From: a virus
Taxonomy: Duplodnaviria > Caudoviricetes
Virus record (IMG/VR): IMGVR_UViG_3300035497_000412
Length of the DNA stretch: 64,000 nucleotides
Reading direction: 5' to 3' (one strand)
Part shown: one piece after another, positions 43,861 to 60,532 of the stretch
How the letters are laid out: each line of letters begins with the position of its first letter
Position numbering within the stretch: the first letter of the stretch is position 1
Position numbers and translations under genes: made by a program
Notes under the pieces: model-generated
The model's input: the letters and a program-made list of their open reading frames with translations, nothing else
The model's database searches: none
What the model was told of the DNA's origin: nothing

Positions 43861-43978
43861 AGTTATGTTGCATAAAAACTAATCTAACGAATTGTGCAAC
43901 TTATTTTCAAAAAATCTTGACAAATGGAAAATAAAGCGTTATACTATAGTTGAAAATAAAAAGAAAGAGGTCTTAAAA

Positions 43979-44197
43979 ATGATGATGTACATTGTAACCC
44001 ATGTTTGCGATGAGGAGTACGGAAACACTGAAAACGTAGCAGTATTTGCTACCCGCGATCAAGCTAACGCTTTTGTGAACGCTCATAACTCCACCTATCA
44101 CGCATGGTTCATGGAGCAGAACGAAACCCGTCCTACTTTGAATGTAGAGGAATGGGAAGTCGGAACGGACGTTTGGGAAGAAATAATTGGAGATTAA
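43979..44197 (+). CDS. small hypothetical early protein
   Basis: Promoter 43917, RBS, YIVTH..NVAVFATR..A..F motif also seen in 52404. Confidence 0.7.
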   Translation: MMMYIVTHVCDEEYGNTENVAVFATRDQANAFVNAHNSTYHAWFMEQNETRPTLNVEEWEVGTDVWEEIIGD

Positions 44198-44413
44198 AAA
44201 TCTCCAATTATTTTTATAACAGTACTTTAACACATTAAATTTTAAAAGTCGCAATGTGCAAAAACTAGGGTTTTATTTTACCCCTAGTCTTTTATCAATA
44301 GGCTTAAAAAAAATACAGAGAATTTTCAAAAAAACCTTGACAAACAACTTATAGTATGATATATTATACTCGTAAAGGATAAGAAATAAAAACCTGAAAG
44401 AGGTTGAAATATT

Positions 44414-44899
44414 ATGAAGTATGAAGTTTCGATGGTTCGTAGAGGGCAAGAAGTTAATTACTTTTTGCAGAGATCTTGGTCTGATGGTTATGATTATGAT
44501 CTTCATACTATGACGGTAGAAGCCAATGATTTTGTGGAAGCAGAGAATTTGGCATTGGTAGAAAATCCTGGTTATACGGTTGTTCATTCTGAAATTTGGA
44601 TGAGCGAAGCAGAAAAGGTTGAAGCCGAAAAAAGAGTAGAAGAATACCATGAAGTACGGAGAAAAGAACGGGAAGAAAGAATTAACCAGCAGAAAGAAAA
44701 AGAACAAGCTAAGAAAATAGCAAAAGAAACTGAAAAAGCTATTAAAAAAGGTATGACCTTAGAAGAATATCAAGCAGACAAAAAGAAGAAAGCAAAGATC
44801 GCTCGTTACAAAAGAGAAGTTCGCCAAATGGAAGAACAGATTGCAGAGCTTGAAAAGCAAATTGCGTATAAGAAAAATTGGCTTGCTGAAAATGCCTAA
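44414..44899 (+). CDS. 161-aa coiled-coil hypothetical protein
   Basis: Promoter 44337, RBS, terminator ~44903-44940. Confidence 0.75.
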   Translation: MKYEVSMVRRGQEVNYFLQRSWSDGYDYDLHTMTVEANDFVEAENLALVENPGYTVVHSEIWMSEAEKVEAEKRVEEYHEVRRKEREERINQQKEKEQAKKIAKETEKAIKKGMTLEEYQADKKKKAKIARYKREVRQMEEQIAELEKQIAYKKNWLAENA

Positions 44900-45009
44900 A
44901 CTTTAAATTCCCCTTGAAGAATCTTTTAAGGGGAATTTAAAAAAACTCTTGACAATTTTTAAAAAATTTGATATAATAATTACAGGAATCAGGAAGGGAA
45001 TTGATAAAT

Positions 45010-45189
45010 ATGAAAACTGTAAATATTATCCTTACCCCAAATCAAGCTCAATTCTTATTCATCCTTGAAGATTCGATCCCCTGTTTTATCTATCAGGGCG
45101 ATTATACAGGAGAATGGGTAATTAAATACAGAAAAGAAGATGAAGAAACTGTAAATAAGATTTTTAAAAATATTTTAGGAAAATCTTAA
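45010..45189 (+). CDS. small hypothetical protein
   Basis: Promoter 44949, RBS cassette. Confidence 0.6.
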   Translation: MKTVNIILTPNQAQFLFILEDSIPCFIYQGDYTGEWVIKYRKEDEETVNKIFKNILGKS

Positions 45190-45240
45190 AAAACCTATTG
45201 ACAAATTAAATCGTATCTGCTATAATAAAGACAGTTAAAA

Positions 45241-45369
45241 GAGGTAGGCCAAGGTAGACAAAGTAGACGCAAGTCGAACTAAGACTACAAGGTAAGAATA
45301 AGATCGGATAAGAGAGATTGAGATGCGGCAAAGCCACTAGATGCTTAAAGCCACTTATCGCCTACCTTA
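45241..45369 (+). ncRNA. structured 5' leader/ncRNA, copy A
   Basis: Homologous to 48561-48693; closing helix AGGUAGGC/GCCUACCU. Confidence 0.65.
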
Positions 45370-45389
45370 AAAGAAAGGAATTGATAATT

Positions 45390-45689
45390 ATGAAAATCTA
45401 TGAAGTTTTTACCGCCGATTCTACGAACAGTGACCGTAACCAAGAAGTATGCGCCTATGTTGCATCTAAAGAAATTGCAGGAAATTATATCCGCGCTAAT
45501 CTCGTTGAAATTTATAACGTCCACAAGAAAAGTCCTTTGTGGAATCATGGAATTGATATCCTCTGGTGCGCAGATTGGACAGAAAAGGAATTCCCCGGTT
45601 TTATCCCCGATCTTGTGTACGCGGGGAAAGACAGCCACGGATTAAAAGTCACCATGTTTTTTAAGGAAATTGACGTAATCGAAAAGTAA
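45390..45689 (+). CDS. 99-aa hypothetical protein
   Basis: AGAAAGGAATTGATAATT-ATG cassette. Confidence 0.7.
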   Translation: MKIYEVFTADSTNSDRNQEVCAYVASKEIAGNYIRANLVEIYNVHKKSPLWNHGIDILWCADWTEKEFPGFIPDLVYAGKDSHGLKVTMFFKEIDVIEK

Positions 45690-45751
45690 CAATTAAGAGT
45701 TCTTCCCTTGGATAATGTTTTCAAGGGAAGAACTAAGTTAGAAAGGTATTA

Positions 45752-46120
45752 ATGACTATGAAAATTTTATACATGGCTGATGATGGTGAAGAATTCGAAA
45801 CCGAAGAAGAATGTAAAGAACACGAAGAAGCAATGAGAGTAAAAGATGAATTTAATTCTCGTATGAGACTTTATGACGCAAAAATGAATAGATTTGACCC
45901 TGATATTGAAGATATTGAACTTGAACAAATTACATACGCTTATTTTGCGGATGAAGAAACCTTCAACTATTTCAATGACTTTTTTAATGAGAACGGTTTG
46001 TTTTCTCCAAAAGATGATGGATGTAGTTTTTCTAGTGGACATAGTTTCATGTGGGATGGTAATGGCAAATGTTGGGTATCTGTTAATGATTTCATTAACG
46101 AGCTTATGAATCATCTTTAA
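45752..46120 (+). CDS. acidic hypothetical protein, paralog of 52636
   Basis: ADDG.EF...EECK.HE motif shared. Confidence 0.75.
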   Translation: MTMKILYMADDGEEFETEEECKEHEEAMRVKDEFNSRMRLYDAKMNRFDPDIEDIELEQITYAYFADEETFNYFNDFFNENGLFSPKDDGCSFSSGHSFMWDGNGKCWVSVNDFINELMNHL

Positions 46121-46219
46121 AATGAAAATTTGAAAAACTTGTAAAATCCAAAAGAAGCTCTAGTAAAGAAATTGCGGCCGCCCCCTAAAATTCTTTACTA
46201 GGGCTTTAGTAAATTTTTA

Positions 46220-46625
46220 TTTTGTGCATTTTGACGAATTTAGCGCTTTAAAGCGCTACACTTTAACACTTTAAAGCATTTTCTAGTAAATATTTTTTAC
46301 TTTAACACATTAAAGCTTTAAACTTTAACACATTAAAGCTTTAAACTTTAACAGTTTAAAGCAGTGCCCGGGCGCCAAGGAATGATGCGCCCGGATTTTA
46401 CACTTTAAAGCATTAAAGCAAATTTTATTTACTAGGCAATACTTCAACACGCTAAAGCGCTAAATCCCTAAAGTTTACTTTAATACTTTAAAATATTAAA
46501 GCGAAGTTAGTTCAGACTAATTGTAGTTAGTTGCCGCTAACGGACCCCACTTTGGCACTTTAAAACATTAAAGCAAAAAAAGTTTTAAAGTTTAACGCAT
46601 TAAAGCGTAACAGTTTAAATCCTAA
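46220..46625. repeat. octamer-periodic palindrome island with 27-nt GC hairpin
   Basis: Tandem ACTTTAACACATTAAAGCTTTAA; hairpin 46368-46394; partly duplicated at 47718-47815. Confidence 0.75.
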
Positions 46626-46721
46626 AACTAAAAAAGTTGAGAAAATTTTAAAATGACTATTGACAAATCGATAATATGTGATATAATGAATACAGAAATT
46701 AAGAAAAGGAAGGTGCGTCAC

Positions 46722-47006
46722 ATGAAACGCTCTGAAATGGAAAAACTGGTTGTCCTGCTGCTGAAACACAACATCCCCTTTGAACTTGGTGTTCAGTATT
46801 ATGAGAACGCTTTGCAAGTGTTCTATCCCTCTAAGACTAACCCCGTGTGTGATGTGGTTTGCAATCCTTATTCCATCGGTTTTGATAAGGGGCTGTTGGA
46901 GATGAAGGGCCTTGTTCCTTTTGATGATGATGAAGTCGAGGGGTATCTGGATGCAGAAGAAATTCTGGTTCGGATCGAATGTCACTATTTGGCACACAAA
47001 AATTAA
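46722..47006 (+). CDS. 94-aa hypothetical protein
   Basis: Promoter 46660, RBS, GLLEM.GL..VEGYL motif. Confidence 0.75.
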   Translation: MKRSEMEKLVVLLLKHNIPFELGVQYYENALQVFYPSKTNPVCDVVCNPYSIGFDKGLLEMKGLVPFDDDEVEGYLDAEEILVRIECHYLAHKN

Positions 47007-47065
47007 TTTCAAAAAAGGCTTGACAAAAGCCTAAATAAGGCTTATAATGGCCATAGGAACAAACG

Positions 47066-47135
47066 AGGGGTCAAGGCGGATACGCCAGATAAGAGTAGAA
47101 CAGGATGAGACGTTTAAAGCCCTCTACCACCCCAC
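47066..47135 (+). ncRNA. structured leader, short copy C
   Basis: CAAGGCGGAUACGCC..GAUAAG..UUAAAGCC, closing GGGGU/ACCCC. Confidence 0.45.
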
Positions 47136-47161
47136 CAGAAGAAAGAAAGGAATTGATAATT

Positions 47162-47455
47162 ATGATGATCGATGCTAGAGAGGCCAGAGCAATGACTTTT
47201 GCCGCCATTGAAAACCAGAAGAAGAATGAAAAGCTTGCGGCTGAGCAGTGGATCGACAGCAAAATTGCTAGTCTGGTGACAGAGGACGCAAACAAGGGCA
47301 ATGGTTCAACCACCGTTTATGTACCTGATGACGCTGGAGTAAAGGCCAATATTGTTAAGCAGATTCTTTCTGAATATGGTTACACGGTTAAGGTCACTAC
47401 AAAGGAGTATAACCGCAAGCCTGCCACATTCATTACTATCACTTGGAATTACTAA
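47162..47455 (+). CDS. 97-aa hypothetical protein
   Basis: RBS cassette; terminator AAACCCCTGG..CCAGGGGTTT at 47460-47485. Confidence 0.75.
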   Translation: MMIDAREARAMTFAAIENQKKNEKLAAEQWIDSKIASLVTEDANKGNGSTTVYVPDDAGVKANIVKQILSEYGYTVKVTTKEYNRKPATFITITWNY

Positions 47456-47486
47456 ATGGAAACCCCTGGAGCACCAGGGGTTTTCT

Positions 47487-47960
47487 TTGTGCAATTTGAC
47501 GAATTTAGTGCTTTAAAGTGTTGAATTCGTCAAATTGCACAACACTTTAGCACTTTAAAGCATTGTATTGGGCCGGCCGCCAAGGACTGGTGCGGCCGGA
47601 CTTTAGCGCTTTAAAGCGTTAAAGCGATTTTTTACGTAGTTCGGCACTTTAGCGCTTTAAAGTGTTAAATCACGAAACTATATCTTCTACAATACTTCAA
47701 TGCTTTAAAGTATTGAAGTTAGTCATCGCTAACGGACCCCACTTTAACACTTTAAAGTGTTAAAGCAAAAAAGTTCGCCGCTTTAAAGTTTTAAAGTGTA
47801 ATGCTTTAAATCCTGAAAGTGGCAGTTAGTCTATACTAACTGCACAATTTGGCCGCTCCATCTTTGTGCAATTCGACAACGTAGAAAAACTTAACCGTTT
47901 TTTGTATAATTTGACGATGTAGAAAAATCTACTCGTTTTCTACTCGTCTTTTGTGCAACT
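47487..47960. repeat. octamer-periodic palindrome island with 27-nt GC hairpin
   Basis: Perfect 24-bp palindrome CTTTAACACTTTAAAGTGTTAAAG at 47742-47765; hairpin 47573-47599. Confidence 0.75.
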
Positions 47961-48051
47961 TTTTTTGAGATAATGTTTGACTTTTGAATATCCCTGTGAT
48001 ATCATGATAATAGGAATTGAACCTAAACAATTTAATAAAGGGGTGCTATCT

Positions 48052-48513
48052 ATGAAAAAGATGCTATGCTTTGACCTTGATGGAACGATCGTTGACTTCT
48101 ACGGTGTGGAAAACTGGCTTGCGATGCTAAAACAAGAAAATCCTGCTCCGTACGAAATCGCTGAACCGCTTTATGACATGGATAAGCTAAATGCTATTTT
48201 AGACAAGCTTGTAAAGATCGGCTGGGAAGTACGTGTAATTACATGGCTTGCAAAAAATAGCTCTAAGCCCTACAAAGACGCCACGCGAAAAGCAAAAAGG
48301 GAATGGCTGGAAAAGTACCATTTTCCCTACGAACATTTCCACGGCGTAATGTATGGGGCAACCAAAGCGGATAGCGTACGCAAATACCTATCTAATGACG
48401 ATATCGCGATTCTGATAGATGACAATGCGAAAGTTAGAAGTGGGTGGACTTTAGGTGCGACAATTGACCCAAGTGACGGAAAGTTACTTGAAAAACTTTT
48501 TTCACTAATTTGA
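48052..48513 (+). CDS. HAD-superfamily phosphatase (5'-nucleotidase-like)
   Basis: FDLDGT motif I, VIT motif II, K, and LIDDN motif IV. Confidence 0.85.
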   Translation: MKKMLCFDLDGTIVDFYGVENWLAMLKQENPAPYEIAEPLYDMDKLNAILDKLVKIGWEVRVITWLAKNSSKPYKDATRKAKREWLEKYHFPYEHFHGVMYGATKADSVRKYLSNDDIAILIDDNAKVRSGWTLGATIDPSDGKLLEKLFSLI

Positions 48514-48560
48514 AAAAAAGGGGGTTGACAAATCCAAAAATAAGGCTTATAATGGCTACA

Positions 48561-48693
48561 GTGATAAGGCCAAGGCGGACAAAGTAAGCGAAAAGCCGAA
48601 ATAAGAACGCAAGGTAAGAACAAGATCGGATAAGTAAGAATGAAACGCGGCAAAGCCACTAGATAACTTAACGCCACTTGTCGCCCTTTATCA
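48561..48693 (+). ncRNA. structured 5' leader/ncRNA, copy B
   Basis: Aligns with 45241-45369 with compensatory changes. Confidence 0.65.
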
Positions 48694-48716
48694 ACGCAAA
48701 GAAAGGACTTGATACC

Positions 48717-49508
48717 ATGAATTTAAACCAGTTAAACATCGATCGCCGCCGCCACTACATTTTAATGGTAGATACTGAGACTGCCAATTCTCAAGATGAG
48801 AATGGTAAGGTTTGCCCTTATTCCGCGCTTGTCTATGACTTTGGATGTGCGGTCGTAGACAAGCAAGGTAATGTATACTACACTTTCAGCGCCATCAACA
48901 AGGACATTTTTATCGGTGAGCGTGACCTAATGCGTTCCGCGCACTATGCCCGGAAAATTCCCCGTTATCTAGACGATATCCAGAGCGGCAAGCGCCAGTT
49001 AATGAGTTGGGCAGATATTAAGCTCAATGTTTGGGCTATTATGGCAGCTTTTGGAATCGACACCGTTTGCGCGCACAACGCCCGGTTCGATTATTATGCC
49101 ATTCTTGCTACTGAGCGTTATATCTCTAAGTCCTATGACCGTTATTTTTTCCCATTTGGGACTATTTGGTGGGATACGCTCAAGATGAGCCGCGATGTTA
49201 TCCACAAACAACCAACTTATAAGGCTTTTTGTGAAAGTAATGGGTACATTACCAAAACTGGCCAGTGTTCCGCAACAGCACAGAACCTTTTCCGTTTTAT
49301 TTCCCATGAAAACGACTTTGAAGAAAGCCATACCGGGTTAGAGGACGTTCTGATTGAAAAGGATATTCTTGCCTATTGTTTCCGCCAGCATAAGCCGATG
49401 CGAAAAACCCTTTGGCAAGATGTGGAATTGACCGATCGGCAAATTGAAATCCTGCTGGAGCGGCAATGGGAATTTATCCCAACTTTCAATAAAAAGAACC
49501 TTTTCTAA
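48717..49508 (+). CDS. DEDDh 3'-5' exonuclease
   Basis: VDTET, AHNARFD, WWDT, HTGLED motifs. Confidence 0.88.
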   Translation: MNLNQLNIDRRRHYILMVDTETANSQDENGKVCPYSALVYDFGCAVVDKQGNVYYTFSAINKDIFIGERDLMRSAHYARKIPRYLDDIQSGKRQLMSWADIKLNVWAIMAAFGIDTVCAHNARFDYYAILATERYISKSYDRYFFPFGTIWWDTLKMSRDVIHKQPTYKAFCESNGYITKTGQCSATAQNLFRFISHENDFEESHTGLEDVLIEKDILAYCFRQHKPMRKTLWQDVELTDRQIEILLERQWEFIPTFNKKNLF

Positions 49509-49670
49509 AAAAATAGTTGACTTTCTCTTGTGAGTATGATATACTCTAAGAGTGGAAAGGCTCACAAGAGAAAATCACCACTACACTTAATATCTACGGA
49601 AAAACCCGTTGATATAAAACATTTTTAAAGGCAAGGAAAAGCCTAAAAAAACCAGAAAGGAATTGTTACT

Positions 49671-50072
49671 ATGGCTACTATGAAGATTACTAAGCGCGAT
49701 TATTTTACCACCCTGTCCACCCTCGTTCATGAGAGCGACTTCCCCCATGTCGTAGGTGATAAGGAAATCACCTACGAGCAGATGGTTGAGTTTATCAGCC
49801 ACGAGATTGAGCTTTTGAACCGCAAGAATGCCGCGGATAGCTCCAAGGGGCTAACCGCTAAGCAGATCGCCCGGCAGGAAGTCATGAATGCGATGCTGAC
49901 CCGGATGACTTTTGACAAGCCGTATTTGGTTTCTGATATTATCAAGACTTTCCCCGAATGCGAGGGCAAGAGTACCAGTGAAGTTTCCCGAATGCTCCAT
50001 GATTTGGTAAAGGCTGGTATTGTTGAACGCATTGAGGAAAAGCGCAAGGCGTATTTCATTCGCCGGGCCTAA
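49671..50072 (+). CDS. winged-helix DNA-binding protein, paralog of 53715
   Basis: STSEVSRMLHDLVKAGIVERIEEKRKAYF wHTH-like C-terminus. Confidence 0.75.
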   Translation: MATMKITKRDYFTTLSTLVHESDFPHVVGDKEITYEQMVEFISHEIELLNRKNAADSSKGLTAKQIARQEVMNAMLTRMTFDKPYLVSDIIKTFPECEGKSTSEVSRMLHDLVKAGIVERIEEKRKAYFIRRA

Positions 50073-50136
50073 TTCTCCAAAATTTGGGAAGGGGGATATC
50101 CCCCTTCCCAAAGCCCCATAAAAAGGAGGTCCAAAA

Positions 50137-50493
50137 GTGAGTGAACAAATTGACACCATGCGTAAACTTGGATGGACTGAAGAAGAAATTGCCGACGTCT
50201 TAAAAAGTGATAAGGCTATTGATAAAGGTGCAAAGCTTTTTGAACTGGATGCTGAACACGAAAAAGCTAGTAAAGACGCGCGAAAGCTAGGACAGCGCAG
50301 AACGCCCACGGTTTACGACTTTTCCAAACGAGAACGCAAAAAGGATACTGATAAAGGCGATTTAATTGCGGCGGTGGTCACTGGATTGCAAGCGGCTGGA
50401 GCTAAAACGACCATTACTAATCCTGAGCGCGAAATTGAATTGGAATATAATGGGCGAAAATTTAAAATCGTGTTGAGCGCTCCGCGTAAGTAA
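50137..50493 (+). CDS. hypothetical protein, paralog of 54163
   Basis: KLG.T.EE..D..K.D..ID.G and RERK motifs shared. Confidence 0.75.
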   Translation: MSEQIDTMRKLGWTEEEIADVLKSDKAIDKGAKLFELDAEHEKASKDARKLGQRRTPTVYDFSKRERKKDTDKGDLIAAVVTGLQAAGAKTTITNPEREIELEYNGRKFKIVLSAPRK

Positions 50494-50529
50494 CACAAAA
50501 GGGAAGAAATGGAAAATGCCATTTCTTCC

Positions 50530-50930
50530 CTTTTCGTCATTTTAATGAATTCAACACTTTAATGTGTTGAATTTTGTTATTTTTCACAAAACAGATCGGT
50601 GTCAAGTTGGAATATTACACAAAAATTAGCTCATTTTGGGCTGTTTTTTTATGCAATTTGCACAAAAAATTTAGCACTTTAAACTGTTAAAGCGCAGCAT
50701 AATGACGAATTTAACACTTTAGCGCTTTAAAACGCGACACTTTCACAGTTTAAAGCGTTGAATCGGCCGCTGGGGAATGAGGCGGCCGAAATTTCCATTA
50801 TATCACCCCTCCCGCCTTTTGTCAATAGGCAAATTGCACAAAGATTGTGCCACTTAGAATCCCGAATTCGTCACTTTGCACAAAGAAAAATTCATAGCTA
50901 AAATTTTGTGCATTTTGCCATTGATTTCTG
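50530..50930. repeat. palindrome island plus antisense promoter/27-nt hairpin unit
   Basis: Hairpin 50763-50789; minus TTGACA(50825)-17-TATAAT(50802). Confidence 0.7.
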
Positions 50931-51063
50931 GAATATATAGTGATATAATAAACTCATCAAATGAAAGAGAGGTAAATTAATTACACTAAATGAAAATTCC
51001 CTATTGACTTTTGCTAAAAATTTTGTTATAATAATTACAGGAATTAAGAAAGGAGATACCCAA

Positions 51064-51324
51064 ATGAAAAATGTATCTGAAATGACTCTGGAGGAACTGA
51101 AAGCACTAACTGAAGAAATTGAAACCCGCAGAGCTGTACTTCACGAGGAACAGAAATATATTGCCGCTTGGAAGAATGCTATAAGCGCTTTGCATGACTT
51201 CCTTGATGAGTATGGGGTATTCTACATGACCATTAATGGTGGTGATTACCAGTTTGACGCAAGTGATGTTGAAATGTGGATGTCAACCCCCGGCACGATG
51301 GAAATCAATATTGAAAACGATTAA
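51064..51324 (+). CDS. 86-aa hypothetical protein
   Basis: Promoter 51005, AGAAAGGAG RBS. Confidence 0.7.
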   Translation: MKNVSEMTLEELKALTEEIETRRAVLHEEQKYIAAWKNAISALHDFLDEYGVFYMTINGGDYQFDASDVEMWMSTPGTMEINIEND

Positions 51325-51342
51325 AAAAAGGAGCTGATAAAT

Positions 51343-51501
51343 ATGCCTACTCACATTATTATTGCTAGTATGATTTGCATTGCTGGTGTTTCCGTTCGCA
51401 TTGTCGCAGAAGCGTCTCAGCGGAAACCGAACCTTGCAAAGCTCCTATGGAGCGCCGCCGAAATGATTTCTTTAGTTTGTATTTTCCGATTCTATCTGTA
51501 A
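51343..51501 (+). CDS. 52-aa small membrane protein
   Basis: MPTHIIIASMICIAG, AAGGAG RBS; below ORF-track cutoff. Confidence 0.55.
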   Translation: MPTHIIIASMICIAGVSVRIVAEASQRKPNLAKLLWSAAEMISLVCIFRFYL

Positions 51502-51522
51502 AAAAAAAGGATTTGATTGTTT

Positions 51523-51993
51523 ATGAAATTTTTGATTGTATTTATTATCCTGTCCATTGTAAACGTGACATTCTCTACTGTCCGCTCTATTGTAACAATC
51601 AAGGGTGGAAAGCTAGTAGCAAGCTTTATCTCTGGCGGCTACTTTGCTTTTTACAATATCATGTTGATTTACACTGTGGCAGATTTTCCCATGTGGCAGA
51701 AATGTGTAATTACATTTGCGTGTAATGTGGTTGGTGTATTCATTGTAAAATGGATTGAAGAAAAAATGCGAAAAGACAAGCTGTGGCGTGTGGAAACTAC
51801 TGTTCCAGCTAGTCAAGGCGAATCCCTAGCGGAAACTGCAAAAGAAAAGGACTTATCTTTCAACTACATTAATATTCAGAAGTATTGGATTTTCAACTTC
51901 TATTGCCCTACTCAGAAAGAGAGTTCAGAAGTAAAAGAAATGCTTAAAGGCTATGACGCAAAATATTTTGTCTCTGAAACGAAAATTCTTTAA
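51523..51993 (+). CDS. membrane protein, DUF2179/YebE-like N-terminus
   Basis: Three hydrophobic segments, NV.FSTVRSI.T.KG.K..A pattern. Confidence 0.65.
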   Translation: MKFLIVFIILSIVNVTFSTVRSIVTIKGGKLVASFISGGYFAFYNIMLIYTVADFPMWQKCVITFACNVVGVFIVKWIEEKMRKDKLWRVETTVPASQGESLAETAKEKDLSFNYINIQKYWIFNFYCPTQKESSEVKEMLKGYDAKYFVSETKIL

Positions 51994-52060
51994 AAAGGTA
52001 TTGACATTTTAATTCTCGTCTGCTATAATAACTGTAGTAAATGAAAGAAAGGTGATTCAA

Positions 52061-52318
52061 ATGAAAATGATTATTGATAGGGGCTATAATGGGTATCATA
52101 TTCCCGATGAAGTTCTTCATTGGGAACTTCCTCCTGATGCAGAAAATGAACACCGCACCGACCCACGTTTTATTGAATGGGTGAAAACACATAAAAATAA
52201 TACTGGCCTTGCAGTTGTAGAAATTCCTGATAATGCTACTGATTGGGAACTAGAAGATTATGATGGACGAGAGAGCATTATTGCGGTTGTGGATGGAAAA
52301 ATTATTCACATTGGCTAA
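52061..52318 (+). CDS. hypothetical phage protein
   Basis: RTDP..I..V and VVEIPD..WELEDYDG.E motif; promoter 52001. Confidence 0.75.
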   Translation: MKMIIDRGYNGYHIPDEVLHWELPPDAENEHRTDPRFIEWVKTHKNNTGLAVVEIPDNATDWELEDYDGRESIIAVVDGKIIHIG

Positions 52319-52403
52319 AAAATCTATTGACAAACCCTCCTCTTTATGATATACTAAAGACGTAAAGAGGAGGAAGAAACCTCAAAGAAAGCTGGTAATA
52401 AAA

Positions 52404-52601
52404 ATGAAAGTTTATTTGGTAAATGAAACTAATTACAACTATAGCCCTGAACCGATTTTGGAAAACGTTGCCATGTTTTCTACTAAAGAAAAGGCTAACG
52501 CATACGTTTCTAAATATTATGTTTGCGGCGATGATGGAGTATGGCATTCACCTTATGACCGATGTGTAGAATCCAGCATTGAAGAATGGAATGTTAATTA
52601 A
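52404..52601 (+). CDS. 65-aa hypothetical protein
   Basis: Promoter 52327; similar to 43979 product. Confidence 0.7.
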   Translation: MKVYLVNETNYNYSPEPILENVAMFSTKEKANAYVSKYYVCGDDGVWHSPYDRCVESSIEEWNVN

Positions 52602-52635
52602 ACACTAAATTGTTAAAAGAAAGGAATTGGTAAAA

Positions 52636-53007
52636 ATGAAAGAGGTAAAATATTGGATTGCAGATGATGGAAAGCGCTTTGATTCTCTAGAGGAATGCAA
52701 AGTTTATGAGGAAAATCTAGAAAAAATGTTAAAAAATTTTAATGAGCTTGTTCGAATGTACGATTCAGAAATGAAACGTCATTATTTTGAAAATGAAGAT
52801 GACCTTGAGGATGTGCGCTATTTATGGGTTGCTAATGAAACAGGCTTTGGATTATTTAATAAACTTGACCTTGTATCGCCTTCACCTAGAGACTGCGGTT
52901 ATGAATTTACTGGTGAACATTGGTTTATTTGGGATGATACAACGGAAACTTGGCGTACCTTTGAAGAAGTCATTAATAAACTTGAACAGATTAAAAAGAC
53001 TCTTTAA
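52636..53007 (+). CDS. hypothetical protein, paralog of 45752
   Basis: ADDGKRF..EECK.YE motif. Confidence 0.75.
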   Translation: MKEVKYWIADDGKRFDSLEECKVYEENLEKMLKNFNELVRMYDSEMKRHYFENEDDLEDVRYLWVANETGFGLFNKLDLVSPSPRDCGYEFTGEHWFIWDDTTETWRTFEEVINKLEQIKKTL

Positions 53008-53128
53008 GTCTTTAAGAGAAAGGAATTGATAAAAATGTGGGGCTTGCGCGACCCCACATTTTTTTAGTAAATTTTTGTTTTCAGCAAATTGTACGAATTT
53101 TCAAATGAAAATTTGGTTATTTTGCCTA

Positions 53129-53222
53129 TTGACAAATCCTATCAAGTGTGTTAAAATGACCGACCGCTGAGGTGCGCAGCGGTCGGAAATTCCATTATAC
53201 CACCTCCAGCCAATTTTGTCAA
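53129..53222. promoter_or_regulatory. convergent promoter pair flanking a 27-nt GC hairpin
   Basis: Plus TTGACA-17-TAAAAT, hairpin 53160-53186, minus TTGACA-17-TATAAT. Confidence 0.75.
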
Positions 53223-53319
53223 TCGTCAAATTGCACAAAAATTTTTGCACTAAGACTCCCGAAATTCCATTTTTTTTACTATGGCCGCAAATCTTTGTGC
53301 AAAATGACGGAAAAGTTTT

Positions 53320-53665
53320 TCTTGATTTCTAAGGTAAGCTGTGCTATACTATAATTGTCCCAAGGGGGAAGGAAAAAACGGCGGACAGCGACAGTTACCC
53401 CGATCTCCAAAAGGACAAGAAAAAAATTTGAAAAATCTCTTGACAAGCCCAACAACGTGTGATACAATAAAGGCGTAAACAAGAGATGGAGCAGAAAACC
53501 TCAAAACAATGAACCTTGAAAATTCAAAAAAAACTCTTGACAAACCCTTCAATCGATGATATAATAAGAATACAAGATAAGGGAAAGCAAGTCAAGCGCA
53601 AGGTTAAAAAATCTCGCAAAGTTCTAAAAAAACTCTTGACAAGCTGAACCGAATCTGGTATAATA
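53320..53665 (+). promoter_or_regulatory. four tandem sigma-A-type promoters with no ORF between them
   Basis: -35/-10 pairs starting ~53322, 53440, 53537, 53636. Confidence 0.7.
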
Positions 53666-53714
53666 AATTTACAAAGAGGAAGGACACCTCACAAACCAGA
53701 AAGGAATTGATACT

Positions 53715-54104
53715 ATGACTACCACCAAGACTACCAAGCGCGACTACTTCACCACCCTGCTGAACAACACTGATGTTCTGGCAAACCTGTCTCTGCCCGA
53801 GGGCATGACCGCAGAAAGCATGACTGCTTTCATCGCTCATGAGATTGAGCTGCTGGATAAGAAGAATGCTACCGAGCGCAAGGCGTCTCCTATCCAGATT
53901 GCCAACGAGGAAACCAAGAACGCAATGATTGAGTTCATGGCCCTTGACAAGCCCTATCTTATCAGTGAACTGATTAAGGAGTGCCCGGCCTGTGAAGGTA
54001 TGGCTACTTCCAAGGTTTCCCGACTGGCTCATGACCTTGTAAAGGCTGGCATCGTGGAGCGGATTGAGGAAAAGCGTAAGGCGTATTTCATTCGTCGGGC
54101 CTAA
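53715..54104 (+). CDS. winged-helix DNA-binding protein, paralog of 49671
   Basis: Identical last 24 aa HDLVKAGIVERIEEKRKAYFIRRA. Confidence 0.75.
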   Translation: MTTTKTTKRDYFTTLLNNTDVLANLSLPEGMTAESMTAFIAHEIELLDKKNATERKASPIQIANEETKNAMIEFMALDKPYLISELIKECPACEGMATSKVSRLAHDLVKAGIVERIEEKRKAYFIRRA

Positions 54105-54162
54105 TTCCAGAAATAGGAAGGGGCGCAAAGCCCCTTCCTAAATCCATTAGAGAGGTGAACAC

Positions 54163-54549
54163 ATGGCACAGAACAAAGAACAAGAACTAATGGAAAAACT
54201 TGGATGTACTCTAGAAGAGGCCCAAGACATTATTAAAACAGATAGTGAAATTGACCACGGCAAAAGAGTTTATTTTGACCTATCCCCGGAACAAGAAAAA
54301 ATTGCAAAGAAGTTTATTAACTCCAGAGAACACCGTAAAAAGCCCATGACTTTTGATAACAAGCCAAGAGAGCGCAAAGCAAACGCCACAAAAGGGGGAT
54401 TAATCGCGGAAATCGCAACTTTTTTGGAACAAAACAGCCAATTTTCCATTGAAAACGTGGAAATTGTAAACAAAGAAAAGCTAATTACCTTTTCTATTGG
54501 CGGACAATCTTATAAACTTGACCTAATTCAGTCAAGAACTAAGAAATAA
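54163..54549 (+). CDS. hypothetical protein, paralog of 50137
   Basis: Shared motifs, same gene order. Confidence 0.75.
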   Translation: MAQNKEQELMEKLGCTLEEAQDIIKTDSEIDHGKRVYFDLSPEQEKIAKKFINSREHRKKPMTFDNKPRERKANATKGGLIAEIATFLEQNSQFSIENVEIVNKEKLITFSIGGQSYKLDLIQSRTKK

Positions 54550-54609
54550 TTGCGGTTTTGGCAGTTTTTTCCTTAAAAACTGCCAATTTTCTATGGAAAA
54601 GGTGATAAA

Positions 54610-54984
54610 ATGGACGAAATTTCAGCAACTATTAAGGCAAAGGCAAAGGGTAAAGAATTCTATTATGTCGGACACTACATTTCTAAAGAAGGAAAATATG
54701 TTTTAAAGCCCGGCACTACAAACGACCTAAAACGCCGACGACAGGAACACAATAGAGCCTATCACAAAACCCCAAATTTTCCCATGGATGATAAAAGCTC
54801 TTTTGAATACGATTGGTTTATTCCTCTTTCTAAATATAATACGCTGCGCGTAGAGGATAGAATGAAGGAGAAATTTCAAGCCGAAAGATTTGGAGTTTAT
54901 GTAAATAATGACCGCTTTGTCTTTGATGAAAAGCCCGAATTTGTGGAAATTACTGTAAAAAGAATTTATAAGATTGCCCTTTAA
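54610..54984 (+). CDS. GIY-YIG-like small nuclease
   Basis: FYYVG..YVLKPGTTNDLKRR.QEH pattern. Confidence 0.55.
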   Translation: MDEISATIKAKAKGKEFYYVGHYISKEGKYVLKPGTTNDLKRRRQEHNRAYHKTPNFPMDDKSSFEYDWFIPLSKYNTLRVEDRMKEKFQAERFGVYVNNDRFVFDEKPEFVEITVKRIYKIAL

Positions 54985-55055
54985 CGAGGGCAATCTTTTT
55001 TTCGTCAAATTGCACAAATACAAAAATTAGGGTGAAAATTTGTGCAATTTACCTA

Positions 55056-55131
55056 TTGACTTTTTGGGCCGGGCGTAGACTGATGTCACGCCCGGAATTT
55101 TCATTATACCACTGGCCCCGCATTTTGTCAA
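55056..55131 (-). promoter_or_regulatory. antisense promoter plus 27-nt GC hairpin
   Basis: Hairpin 55069-55095; minus TTGACA-17-TATAAT. Confidence 0.7.
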
Positions 55132-55261
55132 TAGGCAATTTGCACAAAAATTTTTTTATTTAAAATCCCGATTTGTGCATTTCAACGAAGAAAAAAACTA
55201 TTGACATTCTATGAAGACTGTGATATACTTTAGGTAGAGTAAAGGAAAGGAGATATCAAAA

Positions 55262-55600
55262 ATGATGATGTCACTACTTGGTTTTATTATTGTTGCGATT
55301 CTTATGTCTATTACCGGAGGGGCTTTTATCTCTATGATTATTCTTGCTAATACTAAGATTAGCGGTTGGAAAGAAGTGGTTATAGGTATTATCTTATCTA
55401 TAGCTATTGGATGTGCTATTTCTGGAATGTTTGTTCTTGGAACAAAGATAAATGCAGATTCTTGGAATAATGGTAATTGCTATAATTGTAATACCCAATG
55501 GGAATTAGTAAACGTTCAGAAAATGCGTAGCACTACACATTATTATTACAGCTGTCCAAATTGTGGTGAAGTTATTGATTTAACTCAAAAACCTTATTGA
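55262..55600 (+). CDS. two-TM protein with C-terminal Zn ribbon
   Basis: Hydrophobic N-terminal half; CYNC..CPNC. Confidence 0.75.
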   Translation: MMMSLLGFIIVAILMSITGGAFISMIILANTKISGWKEVVIGIILSIAIGCAISGMFVLGTKINADSWNNGNCYNCNTQWELVNVQKMRSTTHYYYSCPNCGEVIDLTQKPY

Positions 55601-55657
55601 CAAATGACTTAAACCATGTTACAATAATTACAGAAGTGAAGAAAGAGGTTGATTCTA

Positions 55658-55993
55658 ATGTTTGAAGTGTCTTGGTCTGGTGGGTATCCAAGTCTTTGCT
55701 GTGGCGAATGGACAATTATTAAAAATGGAGTAGATGTGTCTGATAAAATTCCTAAAGCATACCGTCATGACAGTATGAATACTTGGGGACTTTATCAACG
55801 CTGGTGTATCAATATGGGAGATTGGGAGGAATACGAAGAAACTTATGAAGATGGGCTGGAAGAAAAAGAATGGATTACGTGTAACAGGAATTGGATTAAA
55901 GAATTTTGTGATAACGAGGAAGAAATGATTGAATTGTATTGGGCGATTTCGCAAGAAGATTGGAGAGGTGGTTCTTGTGGAGGGTGCATTTGA
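55658..55993 (+). CDS. Cys-motif hypothetical protein
   Basis: YPSLCCG..SCGGCI. Confidence 0.75.
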   Translation: MFEVSWSGGYPSLCCGEWTIIKNGVDVSDKIPKAYRHDSMNTWGLYQRWCINMGDWEEYEETYEDGLEEKEWITCNRNWIKEFCDNEEEMIELYWAISQEDWRGGSCGGCI

Positions 55994-56114
55994 AAAAAAT
56001 CTCTTTAAATTTGAGAAAAGTCTTGACAACCATTAGATTCTATGTTATAATAATTACAGAAGTTAAGGGAACGATGGTAAACCCTTAATAATAAAAGAAA
56101 GGAATTGATAATTT

Positions 56115-56375
56115 ATGAACGTTGAAGAACTTGTTAGCGCACTTATTGCTATTGCAGAGGAAAAAGAACAGGACGAAGAAAAAGAACGAGAAGAAGCCGA
56201 ACGTAAAGACTGGAATGAATTAGTACAAGCCATGGAAAAATATCTTAACAGTTGGGGAAATATTTTAATTCAAGATATTGACACTGGGGTAATAATGGAT
56301 GAATTTTTAATTGAATCTTATGGTGAGAATGTAGAAGAACCTGGAATTATTAAAGTTTGGAATCCTAAACGCTAA
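56115..56375 (+). CDS. 86-aa acidic hypothetical protein
   Basis: RBS cassette, promoter 56023. Confidence 0.7.
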   Translation: MNVEELVSALIAIAEEKEQDEEKEREEAERKDWNELVQAMEKYLNSWGNILIQDIDTGVIMDEFLIESYGENVEEPGIIKVWNPKR

Positions 56376-56414
56376 AAAAAAAAGAATTTTTAAATAGAAA
56401 GGAATTGATAATTT

Positions 56415-56624
56415 ATGTGGGCTTTACTTAGTTGGGTTGATGGTTTTGGTGCTGATACATGGGTAAGGGGAATTTTTCCAACGAGAGAAGAAGCTGAATC
56501 TCATGCAGAGGAAAGCGATGGTTTAAAAGAATTTGATTTTGGTTTAGTTAATTTTGATATTTATCATTGTGAAAGAATTGGAAAAGCATGGTGGGAAGAG
56601 GAAGAAGAGGAGGAAGAAGCATAA
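56415..56624 (+). CDS. 69-aa protein with poly-Glu tail
   Basis: RBS cassette. Confidence 0.7.
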   Translation: MWALLSWVDGFGADTWVRGIFPTREEAESHAEESDGLKEFDFGLVNFDIYHCERIGKAWWEEEEEEEEA

Positions 56625-56725
56625 AAAAAATAAAACTTTATCTTGACAAATTCTCCTCTTGGTGCTATAATAATAACATCAAGAGGGGAAGAACCCCAAA
56701 AGAAAAATGAAAGGAATTGATAAAA

Positions 56726-56932
56726 ATGACGGCTTGGGAATTGAATATTGAGGGTGAAACAACTCTTGTTGAGACAAGAGAAATGGCTTTTGATACTTTA
56801 ATGAAAATCCAAAGATGGTTGTTTGAAACGCATGATACTTTTTATGATGCCGTAGATATTACAATTAGAGAAATTGAAATTTTTTCTAACGCAGAAGCCG
56901 CTTATAAAAATTTTTGTGGAGTAGGAGATTGA
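56726..56932 (+). CDS. small hypothetical protein
   Basis: Promoter 56643, RBS cassette, terminator ~56940-56970. Confidence 0.7.
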   Translation: MTAWELNIEGETTLVETREMAFDTLMKIQRWLFETHDTFYDAVDITIREIEIFSNAEAAYKNFCGVGD

Positions 56933-57007
56933 TAAAAAAAGGAGGCTAATTGCGGCCTCCTTTCTTTTTTACCAAAAATCTTATAAAATTTTTGTGCAAT
57001 TTGACTA

Positions 57008-57103
57008 TTGACAAATGACTAGAAAGGTGGTATAATTGCGCCGGCCCTTGACTAGCGTGCGGGCCGGAAATTCCATTATACCACAGCTTCAGAAAAAAGT
57101 CAA
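57008..57103. promoter_or_regulatory. convergent promoter pair flanking a 27-nt GC hairpin
   Basis: Plus TTGACA-17-TATAAT, hairpin 57041-57067, minus TTGACT-17-TATAAT. Confidence 0.75.
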
Positions 57104-58083
57104 TTGGCAATTTATACAAAACTTTGTTTTTAAAAAATCCTAAAATTGTGGAATTTGACTATTGACATTGGGACTGGACTATGGTATACTAGAAGGGGTA
57201 CTAGACTCGCCGGTCCGAGCACCAGTGCGCTGGACCGATCTTCTATCCAAACCCCCATATGCGAATTTTTTGCTCAATCTAGGACCATATGCCATTTTTT
57301 TCCTCAATCCCGAAAACCCGATCGGTTCTTCCAATATTTTCCCAACTTTTCTCCCTCCACTCCGCCCAGCCCAACCGATCGGCCCTCATATGAAAAAATT
57401 CTGCTCAATCTAGGCTTTCTCTCCGACTTCCCTTGCTCTTCGCTAGCTAAGCTAGGACTAGCTAGAACCCTAATCATTTTGATTTTGCGAACAACTTTCC
57501 AATCTCAAGATTTTTTCAACAAAAATCGTGGCAAATTTACTTGACTTTTTATAATATATATGTTATAATTAAAAAAAAGAAAAAATTACCGATCGGCCCC
57601 TAAAACACACTTACCCTCTTTCCAAACTTCCGATCGGGTACCAGACTTCTTTCCTTTCCAAAAGGTAGAATAAAAAGGAAAATTATGGAAAGCCGCAACC
57701 CTCTTCTCCCGCTCGGCTTCCTGTTCTTTTTTCTTCTGGAATAGTCGATTCCAAAAGGCCAACAAAAAAAAAGAAGACAACAGTACTCTTGCGGCAACCC
57801 CATTTTACCGATCGGCACAAGACCTTTCTCATCCTTTCAAAAATAAGGAGAAAAAATTTCAGACGCCGTTTGAAAATATGGCACCTGGGCTAAGCTAGAA
57901 TTAGCTGTAGGCTAATTGCTTTATCTTTTCCGAACACGAATCCATTTTAAAATTTTACGAGGCAAATTCACCTCAATTCTATATAAAAACACCGATCGGC
58001 CCCTAATCGCGCCCAATTATATTGACAATTATATAAAAATATATTATAATATATATAGAAAATAAGAAAAGGAATTGATCCAA

Positions 58084-58383
58084 ATGGAGAAAGAATCAGA
58101 GGGCTAGATTTTGATGTCCACCGCAACTTGAGTCACAGAAATTAATGAAGGCTTCACTTATAAAGATAAAAACGCGGCATACAAATCTCTGGACATTATT
58201 CAATAGTCTATCTTAGATTTTATCCATTTAATGGAAAACCGCGGCCCAATCAATTTCCTTTATATGAACCTTGAAAATTTTACATGGCCTCCCGCAGAAT
58301 CCCAGTGTACGAACATCTGCAAAATACCATTATTTGGGAATAAGCTAAAATCGTTTAAAATTAGCTTCGAAAATTTCAGGTAA
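58084..58383 (+). pseudogene. ORF with two TAG and one in-frame TGA (58129)
   Basis: Promoter 58022 and RBS cassette; frame otherwise open to TAA 58383. Confidence 0.4.
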
Positions 58384-58684
58384 AATACTAAAATCGACTT
58401 CTTGTCCATGAGAGAAAAAGTTTTAGTCGTAGAAGCTTCAATTTTATGGTTTTCACAATAAATTTTTTTGAACCTCTCTTCTCAAAATTTTCTGTCCCAA
58501 GAGCATAAGAGAAAAAAGGAGAAATGGGGGGCGGCAGCTCGTCTCGGAGATCGCATTAACGAAAAAATTTTTGTCTCTTTGGACAAATGTGAAAATTTAC
58601 TAGAGAAGTATTTTTATACATAATAGAAAGTAACAAGCGGGGGGGGTCTAGGCGCTTCGCGCCACCTTACTAAAGCAAGTTGAT

Positions 58685-58745
58685 AGGATTTATATATAGG
58701 ATATATAATGAGCGAAGCGAATTATATATCCTATATATAAATCCT
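58685..58745. repeat. perfect 25-bp inverted repeat with GCGAAGC-containing loop
   Basis: AGGATTTATATATAGGATATATAAT-gagcgaagcga-reverse complement. Confidence 0.9.
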
Positions 58746-59134
58746 TAATAGGAAATGGGAATAAAATCTCGTAGGGGTTTTGGCGCCAAAAGGCAAAGGA
58801 TTTTCGGATGAAATTTTCAAACGTTCCTTGCCGATTTTTCAAATGAGATTTTATATTGGGTCCCATACCCCATTTTCCAAAAGAGAAAAGAAGAAAGATT
58901 AATTGCGCCCGGCCGCAAACTACTTTTCCAAAACTAGGAAGTAACCCGCTCAAATTTCCCTTCTCTCTCTCCTTTTGGAGGGAGAATTTTTTTTTATTAA
59001 GATTTTGTCCCTAATTTTATATACTTTTAGGGACAAAAAATTTTTTACTAAAATTTGTCCCTACAAAAAATTTTTTAATCATTAGGACAAAATTTGTTCA
59101 CCCATTATTTTTAAAATTTATATATAGTGAGGAG

Positions 59135-59282
59135 ATGAAACTAAAGATTGTCAAATTAAAATTAGAATAACCGTAGAACAAAAAGATAAAATAATCTAGT
59201 TATTGTGAATAGCACAATACTAAAGTAAGTAAATTTATTAAAACCGCTCGTGAAAGAGCTATGAATGAGGAGAATAAATAAA
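59135..59282 (+). pseudogene. frameshifted RHH-like paralog of 60134
   Basis: KDCQIKIRITVEQKDKII, then frame change, YCEQHNTKVSKFIK. Confidence 0.6.
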
Positions 59283-59285
59283 TAA

Positions 59286-59456
59286 ATGAAAAATGATTTT
59301 GTAGTATATACTAAAAGATTAGCCAATAAGTTACATGAAGAAGGTTTTAGAATTATTGGTACTGGAATCGATAATAAAAAGCCTTGGTTTAATGTATATT
59401 ATTTTGAAGACACCCCTCAACTAAGAGAAGCTGTTCAACGGTTAAGTAAAAAGTAA
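59286..59456 (+). CDS. 56-aa DUF5659-like protein
   Basis: VYTKRLA..L...GF.I..NKKP.FNVYYFE pattern; paralog of 60341. Confidence 0.65.
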   Translation: MKNDFVVYTKRLANKLHEEGFRIIGTGIDNKKPWFNVYYFEDTPQLREAVQRLSKK

Positions 59457-59493
59457 AAACTAAAAGACAGATAAACGGAGGTAGAAATACAAA

Positions 59494-60030
59494 ATGGGCA
59501 ATTATCAACAAGCCCCAAAATTATACTATAATAAATCAGAAAAAGAAAAAGGCAAAGAAAAAGGATTTACTTATAGAAGTATAGATTTTGAAAAGGCTTT
59601 AATGAATGGATGCAGCAACTTAGCAGAATTAAAATATATGCTATTCTTAACTGGAAATATTGGAGATGGTTCTTTTAGGGTTTCAGAAGCTACCTTAAAA
59701 GAAAGAACAGGTTTAAGCAACAGCTCCATTTCTAGAGCTAGGAAGTCTCTAGAAGCAAAAGGATGGATTACTTGCGTTGAAGGAGTAAGTATTACTGTTA
59801 ATTGTGCTGCGATTTTGGGTAGTCAAGTTGATACCCCATCAAATATGGGTAATCAGGTTGACACCCCACAGGGTAGTCAAGTTGATACCCCAGAGGGGTG
59901 TCAGGTTGACACCCATAATAATATAATAAATATACCAATAAATAAGAATAATTTGAATCCTCCTTCGGAGTCTTCAAATTATTCTAGAACCGCGCCCCCA
60001 GAAGAAGAGAAATCAGTATTCATATTTTGA
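59494..60030 (+). CDS. HTH replication-initiator-like protein with four internal iterons
   Basis: HTH ERTGLSNSSISRARKSLEAKGWI; G(S/N/C)QVDT x4; Asn-rich linker. Confidence 0.7.
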   Translation: MGNYQQAPKLYYNKSEKEKGKEKGFTYRSIDFEKALMNGCSNLAELKYMLFLTGNIGDGSFRVSEATLKERTGLSNSSISRARKSLEAKGWITCVEGVSITVNCAAILGSQVDTPSNMGNQVDTPQGSQVDTPEGCQVDTHNNIINIPINKNNLNPPSESSNYSRTAPPEEEKSVFIF

Positions 60031-60133
60031 AAAGATAGGGTAGTCAACTTGACTACCCTTAAAAGCCGATCGGCCGCAAACTCTTCTCTCTTACTTTTGG
60101 AATAAAAAATTTTTTAAAGGAGATAAAAATTAA

Positions 60134-60283
60134 ATGAAAGAAAATAAAGATTGTCAAATTAAATTTAGACTGACCGCAGAACAAAAGGATAAAATTACCG
60201 AATATTGCAAAAAGCATGATATTAAAATTAGTGAATTTATTAGAAGCGCTTGTGAAAAAATTATGGACCAAGAGAAGCATTAA
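60134..60283 (+). CDS. 49-aa ribbon-helix-helix (CopG/MobC-like) protein
   Basis: QIKFRLTAEQKDKI..ISEFIR. Confidence 0.7.
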   Translation: MKENKDCQIKFRLTAEQKDKITEYCKKHDIKISEFIRSACEKIMDQEKH

Positions 60284-60340
60284 CCCATTACTTCTACTTT
60301 TGGAATGAAAAATCTATTTGTCAAAGGAGTCAAAAATCAG

Positions 60341-60511: not shown

Positions 60512-60532
60512 TCAGGAGGTTTTCAGTATATT

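Follow-up and report, generated by a model that had tools for sequence, protein, structure and literature searches.

A repeated 27-nt GC hairpin with an optional backward promoter in the early region of TAG-recoded phages: a candidate transcription insulator

The viral record IMGVR_UViG_3300035497_000412, of which a stretch of 64,000 nucleotides (the window) was analysed, contains an early region of small genes that is cut into blocks by a repeated GC hairpin of 27 nt, often accompanied by a strong promoter directed against the genes. It was observed that the hairpin is the constant part of this element and the backward promoter an optional part, and that the same layout recurs among uncultured phages from gut and rumen that form a large family. 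The element is best read as a variant of the promoter/stem-loop (PeSL) cassettes of T4-type phages. As to its function, we tentatively favour, from sequence features, a role as transcription insulator of the early region, in which the hairpin and its counter-promoter would stop read-through by head-on collision of RNA polymerases.

The hairpin element in the window and in related phages

An earlier note on this stretch had listed six 27-mers of the form YCG-N21-CGR, all of which were recovered with 7-10 perfect outer pairs, and a 28-nt variant at 57210, which turned out to be another 27-nt repeat (57211-57237) in a CG..CG register common in relatives. An eighth copy (42302-42328) had escaped it. 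The loops vary, as the note said, although the copy at 55069 had to be corrected to a stem of 8 bp and a core of 11 nt. The elements and the signals around them are as follows.

42302-42328, no strand: 27-nt hairpin (8+11+8) without adjacent promoter; eighth copy, at the left edge of the early region
46368-46394, no strand: 27-nt hairpin without adjacent promoter, within a CTTTAA/TTTAAAG repeat array
47573-47599, no strand: 27-nt hairpin without adjacent promoter, within a CTTTAA/TTTAAAG-type array
50497-50534, no strand: bidirectional terminator that closes the preceding gene block, where a backward RNA of ~295 nt is predicted to end
50763-50789, no strand: 27-nt hairpin with a backward promoter alone
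50797-50825, minus: backward (antisense) sigma-A promoter, 12/12, extended -10
53031-53063, no strand: bidirectional terminator on the upstream side of the module
53129-53157, plus: forward promoter facing the hairpin, its -10 ending 2 nt from it
53160-53186, no strand: 27-nt hairpin with a 10-bp stem and facing promoters on both sides
53194-53222, minus: backward promoter, 12/12
54970-54997, plus: upstream sense terminator, poor on the minus strand
55039-55061, plus: '-35 only' half, i.e., an upstream TTGTGCAA box and TTGAC without -10, 7 nt ahead of the hairpin
55069-55095, no strand: 27-nt hairpin (8-bp stem, 11-nt core) with a backward promoter and a -35-only half
55103-55131, minus: backward promoter, 12/12
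56938-56963, no strand: bidirectional terminator on the upstream side of the module
57008-57036, plus: forward promoter facing the hairpin, its -10 ending 4 nt from it
57041-57067, no strand: 27-nt hairpin with facing promoters on both sides
57075-57103, minus: backward promoter, 11/12
57211-57237, no strand: terminal 27-nt hairpin variant, 20 nt past the forward promoter 57162-57190, at the right edge of the early region

Between 46.0 and 57.3 kb, seven 27-nt repeats were seen, against a mean of 0.01 (maximum 1) in 300 Markov resamples, and the window hairpins were predicted to fold with -15 to -21 kcal/mol as RNA, from either strand, and with -8 to -13 kcal/mol as DNA. The terminal hairpin has counterparts in relatives and is followed by a conserved CCCATATG motif. 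Four hairpins begin 7 nt past the -10 of a minus-strand promoter and, in agreement with the earlier description, no open reading frame (ORF) led by a ribosome-binding site starts within 300 nt of any of these four promoters. Two hairpins also face a plus-strand promoter, as had been claimed. However, joint initiation on both strands is not expected: the facing promoters are only 36-39 nt apart, with the plus-strand start inside the left arm, and therefore overlap and should exclude each other. The proposal that leftward transcripts end at bidirectional terminators agrees with the good minus-strand U-tract at three of the four window terminators, but not with the poor one at 54970-54997.

Two of the loops (46376-46386 and 47581-47591) resemble the phage's own ribosome-binding sequence (AAGGAATTGAT), a resemblance that is not general in the family. 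Moreover, about half of the backward and 40% of the forward module promoters, against 8% of other promoters, have an TTGTGCAA box that lies 15-16 nt ahead of the -35. This box, possibly an operator or UP element, is also kept in the -35-only halves (examples at 55039-55049, 56992 and 53238).

A scan of IMG/VR with a pattern comprising the backward promoter and only three stem bases retrieved 63 loci on about 53 contigs, many of them of 100-200 kb. At nearly every locus a GC hairpin lay directly downstream, starting 7-8 nt past the -10 and most commonly 27 nt long, and the surrounding genes belonged to the same early set, i.e., winged-helix and partner cassettes, HAD-like, exonuclease, membrane protein and T5orf172 genes. 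When all strong promoters in these loci were scanned, the hairpin score was bimodal, and a length of 27 nt was found for 47/100 backward-type and 32/56 forward-type hairpins. In 76 non-redundant copies registered on their symmetry axis, arm positions 2-7 were paired in 96-100%, against 40-77% expected from column composition; as this set had been filtered for at least 6/8 pairs, it is the covariation, not the percentage, that constitutes the evidence. Length and covariation, on whose conservation in related phages the earlier note had staked its claim, are clearly conserved.

On the sense strand the 11-nt loop is polar (S12 G13 N N Y16 G17), and no enrichment of off-register loop pairing was found. 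Folding is strand-neutral, with ten G-T against ten A-C oppositions and equal minimum free energy, and the comparison of G-U with A-C has no power to discriminate RNA from DNA, control terminators giving 29:21. The stems of the elements consist of 36% CG and 33% GG/CC steps, whereas the terminators of the same phages have 17% and 62%, respectively.

With a promoter-free pattern, copies in five genomes were found only inside the early region, with zero control hits, and the copies are confined to one such region of 12-17 kb. Their spacing is even, with a mean coefficient of variation of 0.26 compared with 0.69 for random promoter clusters, in element lists chosen by us from feature maps; as the genomes are related, the p-values given here are optimistic. 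In six genomes the elements are ~2 kb apart, and one lineage (L058, 1436-12335) carries 16 elements at ~730 bp, one after almost every gene. Most of the blocks that they delimit in the early region hold 1-9 sense promoters. An element usually stands at the end of a gene block, and in many cases an ordinary terminator precedes it within 150 nt.

Among named relatives, phAss-1 shows facing promoter pairs flanking GC hairpins that are degraded, and in VRE9_2 the antisense promoters are accompanied by short hairpins rich in GC. In the distant relatives AM1 and FADO the layout was absent from the stretches read. A BLASTN search of one module against GenBank phages gave weak promoter matches only, and a stricter facing-promoter pattern gave zero matches in IMG/VR. 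A GTDB scan with one narrow pattern of low sensitivity returned a single 5-kb phage-like contig in a metagenome-assembled genome and no host element. At gathering score, Rfam matched just four group I introns in the window, and 42-58.5 kb gave chance-level hits only. Literature searches on antisense promoter-hairpins in phage early regions found no description of them.

Each side of the hairpin may carry a full promoter facing it, a -35-only half, or neither, and the backward promoter was present in 46/76 and absent in 30/76 non-redundant copies; one loop lineage occurs both in the full-promoter and in the -35-only form. The backward promoter opposes the genes in every mapped genome. Among promoters selected only for opposing the local gene direction, 90/149 non-redundant cases had a hairpin, whose axis lay 20.5-22 nt past the -10 in 71/90. 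Position 7 past the -10 was T in 84% of these hairpin-bearing antisense promoters, compared with A in 79% of other promoters. Backward promoters combine a perfect -35, an extended -10 and, in ~78%, a GG discriminator, and their discriminator (GGAAWTT) places a pyrimidine where sense promoters have A. The backward -10 is 7-8 nt from the stem and the forward -10 only 2-5 nt, which would place the forward start within the arm; a distance of 36-39 nt separated the two -10 boxes in 20/21 cases.

The sense strand after the stem contained 4.27/8 T without a backward promoter against 3.07/8 with it (p=0.001), a difference that is partly confounded, as this T-run at the same time represents the complementary strand of the A-run that follows TTGAC. 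Within 600 nt a terminator was detectable for 25/84 backward transcripts, at 66-616 nt, and none was detected for 59/84. In the terminator-adjacent class, the commonest distance between the terminator stem and the backward -10 was 42-46 nt (17/38). By usual footprint sizes, this distance would set a promoter-bound polymerase against one transcribing the U-tract.

Transcription insulation and its alternatives

The anatomy, polarity, spacing and U-tract features of the element therefore point to transcription control at block boundaries. In the insulation proposed here, a GC hairpin foldable equally from either strand would stand at the end of each gene block, usually just past an ordinary terminator, and would act in either of two ways. 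In the first, a strong gene-less promoter facing backwards, whose start site directly adjoins the hairpin, would load host RNA polymerase; this polymerase would start slowly, owing to the pyrimidine start and the GC-rich first 30 nt, or would pause after synthesis of the hairpin, and would run head-on into read-through polymerases, either at the hairpin itself or at the terminator immediately before it. In the second, the backward -10 would have been lost, and a longer U-tract would make the hairpin a plain pause site or terminator on the sense strand. A forward promoter, if present, would start within the left arm, and its own RNA would thus escape the hairpin, as in the logic of PeSL cassettes. 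Promoter activity, pausing, collision and reduced read-through are all predicted steps. It was previously reported that polymerase arriving from either direction pauses at a stem-loop whose U-tract is weak, that head-on collision blocks read-through, and that heavy polymerase traffic increases the efficiency of collision termination (bioRxiv 10.1101/2022.10.23.513370), and also that PeSL stem-loops terminate upstream early transcripts (PMC2839356). The earlier note, whose interpretation is partly supported, had mentioned a fixed-spacing operator or polymerase trap, and a fixed-geometry RNA polymerase trap comes close to the reading preferred here.

Several points weigh against insulation. The fixed length of 27 nt, the 11-nt loop with its polar S-G-N-N-Y-G motif and the abundance of CG steps are all needless for a pause or a terminator. 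The -35-only halves and the promoter-less copies, three of them in the window, are unexplained, and good terminators already end many blocks. To these are added the optimistic p-values, the choice of the element lists used for the spacing test and the partial confounding of the U-tract difference. The unexplained length, loop motif, CG-step bias and -35-only halves therefore keep alive two rivals, based on antisense RNA and on protein-bound DNA.

It is possible, though rather unlikely, that the backward promoters make cis-antisense RNAs that damp the upstream early genes and are protected by their 5′ hairpin against RppH and RNase J1. With a hairpin that starts at the predicted +1/+2, no more than one base would stay unpaired; B. 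subtilis RppH requires two or more unpaired bases at the 5′ end and has a preference for G as the second base (PMC3997798). The promoter is invariably antisense, its even spacing would blanket the region, and the 59/84 transcripts with no minus-strand terminator detected within 600 nt could reach the upstream gene. However, the 30/76 hairpins lacking a backward promoter look equally intact, three of the four RNAs in the window would end at bidirectional terminators ahead of any gene, the pyrimidine start suggests low output, and neither the fixed length nor the loop motif is required for such a role.

Unlikely, too, is a role of the hairpin as DNA, either in a cruciform or folded on displaced single strands. 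It would then be recognised by a phage protein, for instance by the co-located winged-helix proteins, and the elements would serve as checkpoints in first-entering or terminally repeated DNA. This idea would account for the strand-neutral pairing, for a length that stays fixed whatever the promoter content, for the variant hairpins at both edges of the region, and for the CG-step bias, which is easier to reconcile with stacking in DNA or with recognition of CG than with stacking in RNA. Nevertheless, an 8-bp stem with an 11-nt loop makes a poor cruciform, the lineage spaced at ~0.73 kb indicates no fixed physical length, the powerless G-U test lends no help, and the promoter geometry and the U-tract difference are features of transcription. 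A long terminal repeat in this phage finds no support by analogy, since Tsamsa-like relatives have short terminal repeats. In a more elaborate form, likewise improbable, the 27-nt CG hairpin would be a structure made for recognition by the multi-copy winged-helix proteins, in the form of DNA or of an RNA of ~30-35 nt, and host polymerase parked on the backward promoters would turn the elements into evenly spaced checkpoints along the first-entering DNA, an arrangement with no described counterpart.

The candidate binding proteins are encoded by two genes of the window.

49671-50072, plus: winged-helix gene, copy 1
53715-54104, plus: winged-helix gene, copy 2

This family occurs in 2-3 copies in 8/8 genomes with canonical elements and is missing from two distant relatives with degraded hairpins, a co-occurrence that follows the clade and provides a lead only; the family as a whole comprises over 7,000 clusters. 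The predicted fold is confident (predicted local distance difference test, pLDDT, 84.5). In a VIA structure search, the top match was the Z-alpha domain of ADAR1 (Z 10.1; root-mean-square deviation 1.4 over 63 residues), with which the ordinary regulators Zur and PerR were level, and no Pfam or PDB sequence match to Z-alpha was found. In a comparison made by eye, the family consensus has S/R and R-K/Y in place of the Asn/Tyr of helix 3 and the Pro-Pro/Trp of the wing and thus lacks the Z-alpha residues. Z-DNA formation by the hairpins was rejected, alternating runs averaging 5.7 nt, which is too short. The look-alikes of the partner protein (54163) are unnamed viral proteins only.

The remaining explanations are weaker. 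It is very unlikely that the backward promoters serve as non-productive sinks, in which host sigma-A polymerase would be retained so that host genes are starved: their perfect -35, extended -10, GG discriminator and pyrimidine start suit binding rather than firing, but a sink needs no antisense direction, even spacing or palindrome, and just 3-6 backward promoters per genome stand beside ~25 strong sense promoters.

Highly improbable is the proposal of the earlier note that the elements produce trans-acting small hairpin RNAs, such as a CsrA sponge, a CRISPR RNA mimic, an antitoxin or a guide. Gene-less strong promoters, a stable 5′ hairpin of -15 to -20 kcal/mol and variable loops agree with it, and the facing-promoter class, with a short U-run past the stem, could yield an RNA of ~35 nt. 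The GGA that the note pointed out in three cores is present on the plus strand, whereas backward promoters would transcribe the minus strand, and two of the three cores have no backward promoter; GGA is not enriched in the loops of either strand (13 against 11.1 and 10 against 10.0 expected) and occurred in 5/46 loops of backward RNAs, against 7.2 expected. The loops have no targets in their own loci (7.74 matches, 7.60 in shuffles), and neither an RNA body nor its length is conserved. Rfam yielded no match to a small-RNA family and, among matches to E=1, no CRISPR repeat family. There is no toxin-like partner gene either, the upstream proteins being hydrophilic, of 68-124 amino acids and with a maximum 19-residue hydropathy of 1.21, unlike small hydrophobic toxins.

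Least probable of all is a function of the hairpins as dedicated sites of recombination, either attC-like or as hot spots of the PeSL kind, at which early-gene cassettes would be shuffled: gene order between elements varies among relatives, a 1.3-kb cassette was deleted between two elements, one chimeric copy was seen and one lineage carries an element after almost every gene, but five complete genomes contained no tyrosine, serine or Y1 recombinase (PF00589, PF01797, PF00239; controls positive), indels break at promoter repeats generally (38/43), the 21/43 near an element equal the prediction from a 28% promoter share at either of two ends, and there is no conserved extrahelical base.

If transcription insulation is correct, polymerase collision would have been turned into a reusable module of ~70 bp, whose promoter solely supplies the opposing polymerase, and collision termination would extend past convergent gene pairs. 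This would explain how ~25 maximal tandem promoters can be run without losing control of each block, and would offer a compact insulator for Firmicutes. The element also serves as an early-region marker in a large clade of phages from gut and rumen that has received little study, and the cultured Enterococcus phage VRE9_2 has a reduced form of it.

Phage setting and other features of the window

The window belongs to a large tailed phage in which TAG encodes glutamine: open frames cover 52% of the window under code 11 and 83% under code 15, and its source is a TAG-recoded Firmicutes siphophage. The closest named relatives by portal are phAss-1 (40%), for which a clostridial host was predicted (PMC10607447), and the Enterococcus EF1/VRE9 phages (31%), which share the sigma-terminase synteny with the window. 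Leftward late genes run from 40.85 kb (phage sigma factor, intron-split terminase, portal), followed by the plus-strand small-gene region from ~42.9 to 57 kb, where about 25 near-consensus host promoters point in one direction across ~15 kb, and by replication-initiator-like genes beyond 57 kb. Late genes use TAG as a sense codon across 1-40852, as in an ORF of 2827 amino acids (9664-18147) with 65 TAG. The four group I introns lie at 18154, 23376, 37031 and 37961, two of them adjoining HNH ORFs in the terminase region, and no tRNA was found in the window. A FolD-like gene with both tetrahydrofolate dehydrogenase and cyclohydrolase domains (41070-41747) diverges from the sigma gene, and an AbrB-like gene is found at 41747.

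Partly palindromic CTTTAACAC/TTTAAAG repeat arrays occur at 42800, 43620-43850, 46240-46620, 47500-47810 and 50550-50757, where they surround three hairpins; among the loci compared, such dense arrays are found in this genome only, and they are reminiscent of the CCTAAAG repeats of T7. Ten TGACGAA sites resembling the Spo0A box lie in 42797-55007, many within an TTGTGCAATTTGAC motif, and TGNCGAA counts in the early regions are high for some relatives and low for others. Three related untranslated leaders (45240-45360, 47060-47140 and 48560-48690) stand between promoter and gene with the common blocks GGCCAAGG..GATAAG..GCGGCAAAGCCACTAGA, and may represent a structured leader or small-RNA family.

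Past the last hairpin, a gene-poor stretch (57318-61199) contains eight CCGATCGG palindromes, and similar motifs follow the terminal hairpin of relatives. Two replication-initiator-like helix-turn-helix genes (59494-60059 and 60512-61140) carry internal repeats, of the GGGTAGTCAAGTTGA type and as a 24-nt tandem of the GGTAATACCACATTACC type, which resemble lambda O iterons and mark two candidate origins.

Comparison with known systems

The Frpo single-stranded promoters of the F plasmid (PMC9849209) also present inverted -35/-10 boxes around a hairpin in an early-expressed region. In contrast, many copies of the present element are boxed on one side only, its flanks show no covariation within modules, and tailed phages inject double-stranded DNA. 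The inverted promoter boxes around the hairpin pair through their shared consensus only, and a long single-strand stem of the Frpo type was rejected, flank identity being 0.50 within and 0.51 between modules.

Type I antitoxins provide a familiar case of cis-antisense RNA. With the 5′-terminal stem-loop stabilisers and cis-antisense RNAs of Firmicutes (PMC3997798), the element shares a hairpin flush with the predicted start and a convergent non-coding transcript. It differs from them in that there is no hydrophobic toxin partner, the overlap mostly involves only a shared terminator, the RNA body is not conserved and many copies have no promoter.

The collision-driven bidirectional terminators described by Wang, Ju, Liu and colleagues (bioRxiv 10.1101/2022.10.23.513370) resemble the element in their stem-loop functioning in either direction, weak U-tracts, converging promoters and heavy polymerase traffic. 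However, the known cases lie between two convergent genes, whereas here there is no gene on the antisense side, and the opposing polymerase would be supplied by a dedicated promoter that has no gene and adjoins the hairpin, an arrangement repeated 5-16 times per phage genome.

The PeSL cassettes of the T4-type phages RB49 and phi1 (Arbiol et al. 2010, PMC2839356) are likewise repeated intergenic cassettes of a variable early region, formed by a consensus host promoter, an AT-rich upstream tract and a stem-loop, which in one PeSL subclass lies just past the -10. PeSL cassettes are shuffled at their repeats. Of the indels in the present phages, 38/43 broke at promoter repeats, and breakpoints were not enriched at the hairpins. 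Many sense promoters carry a hairpin that resembles a terminator and has its centre on the -35 box (47013-47032 and 48513-48535 in the window; 19113-25558 in L104, i.e., VRE9_2; L103). They constitute a true PeSL subclass, which is very regular in VRE9_2 and phAss-1. On the other hand, PeSL promoters face the downstream gene, whereas the signature promoter here is backward and gene-less, and a gene-facing promoter with a Shine-Dalgarno site is found here only for the forward subclass. PeSL stems are moreover G-run/C-run terminators, and those of the element are CG-rich, with a fixed span of 27 nt and an 11-nt loop. In its working, the element comes closest to a PeSL cassette joined to a collision terminator, yet it is a member of neither, because it fails a defining feature of each, namely the gene-facing promoter of the former and the convergent gene pair of the latter.

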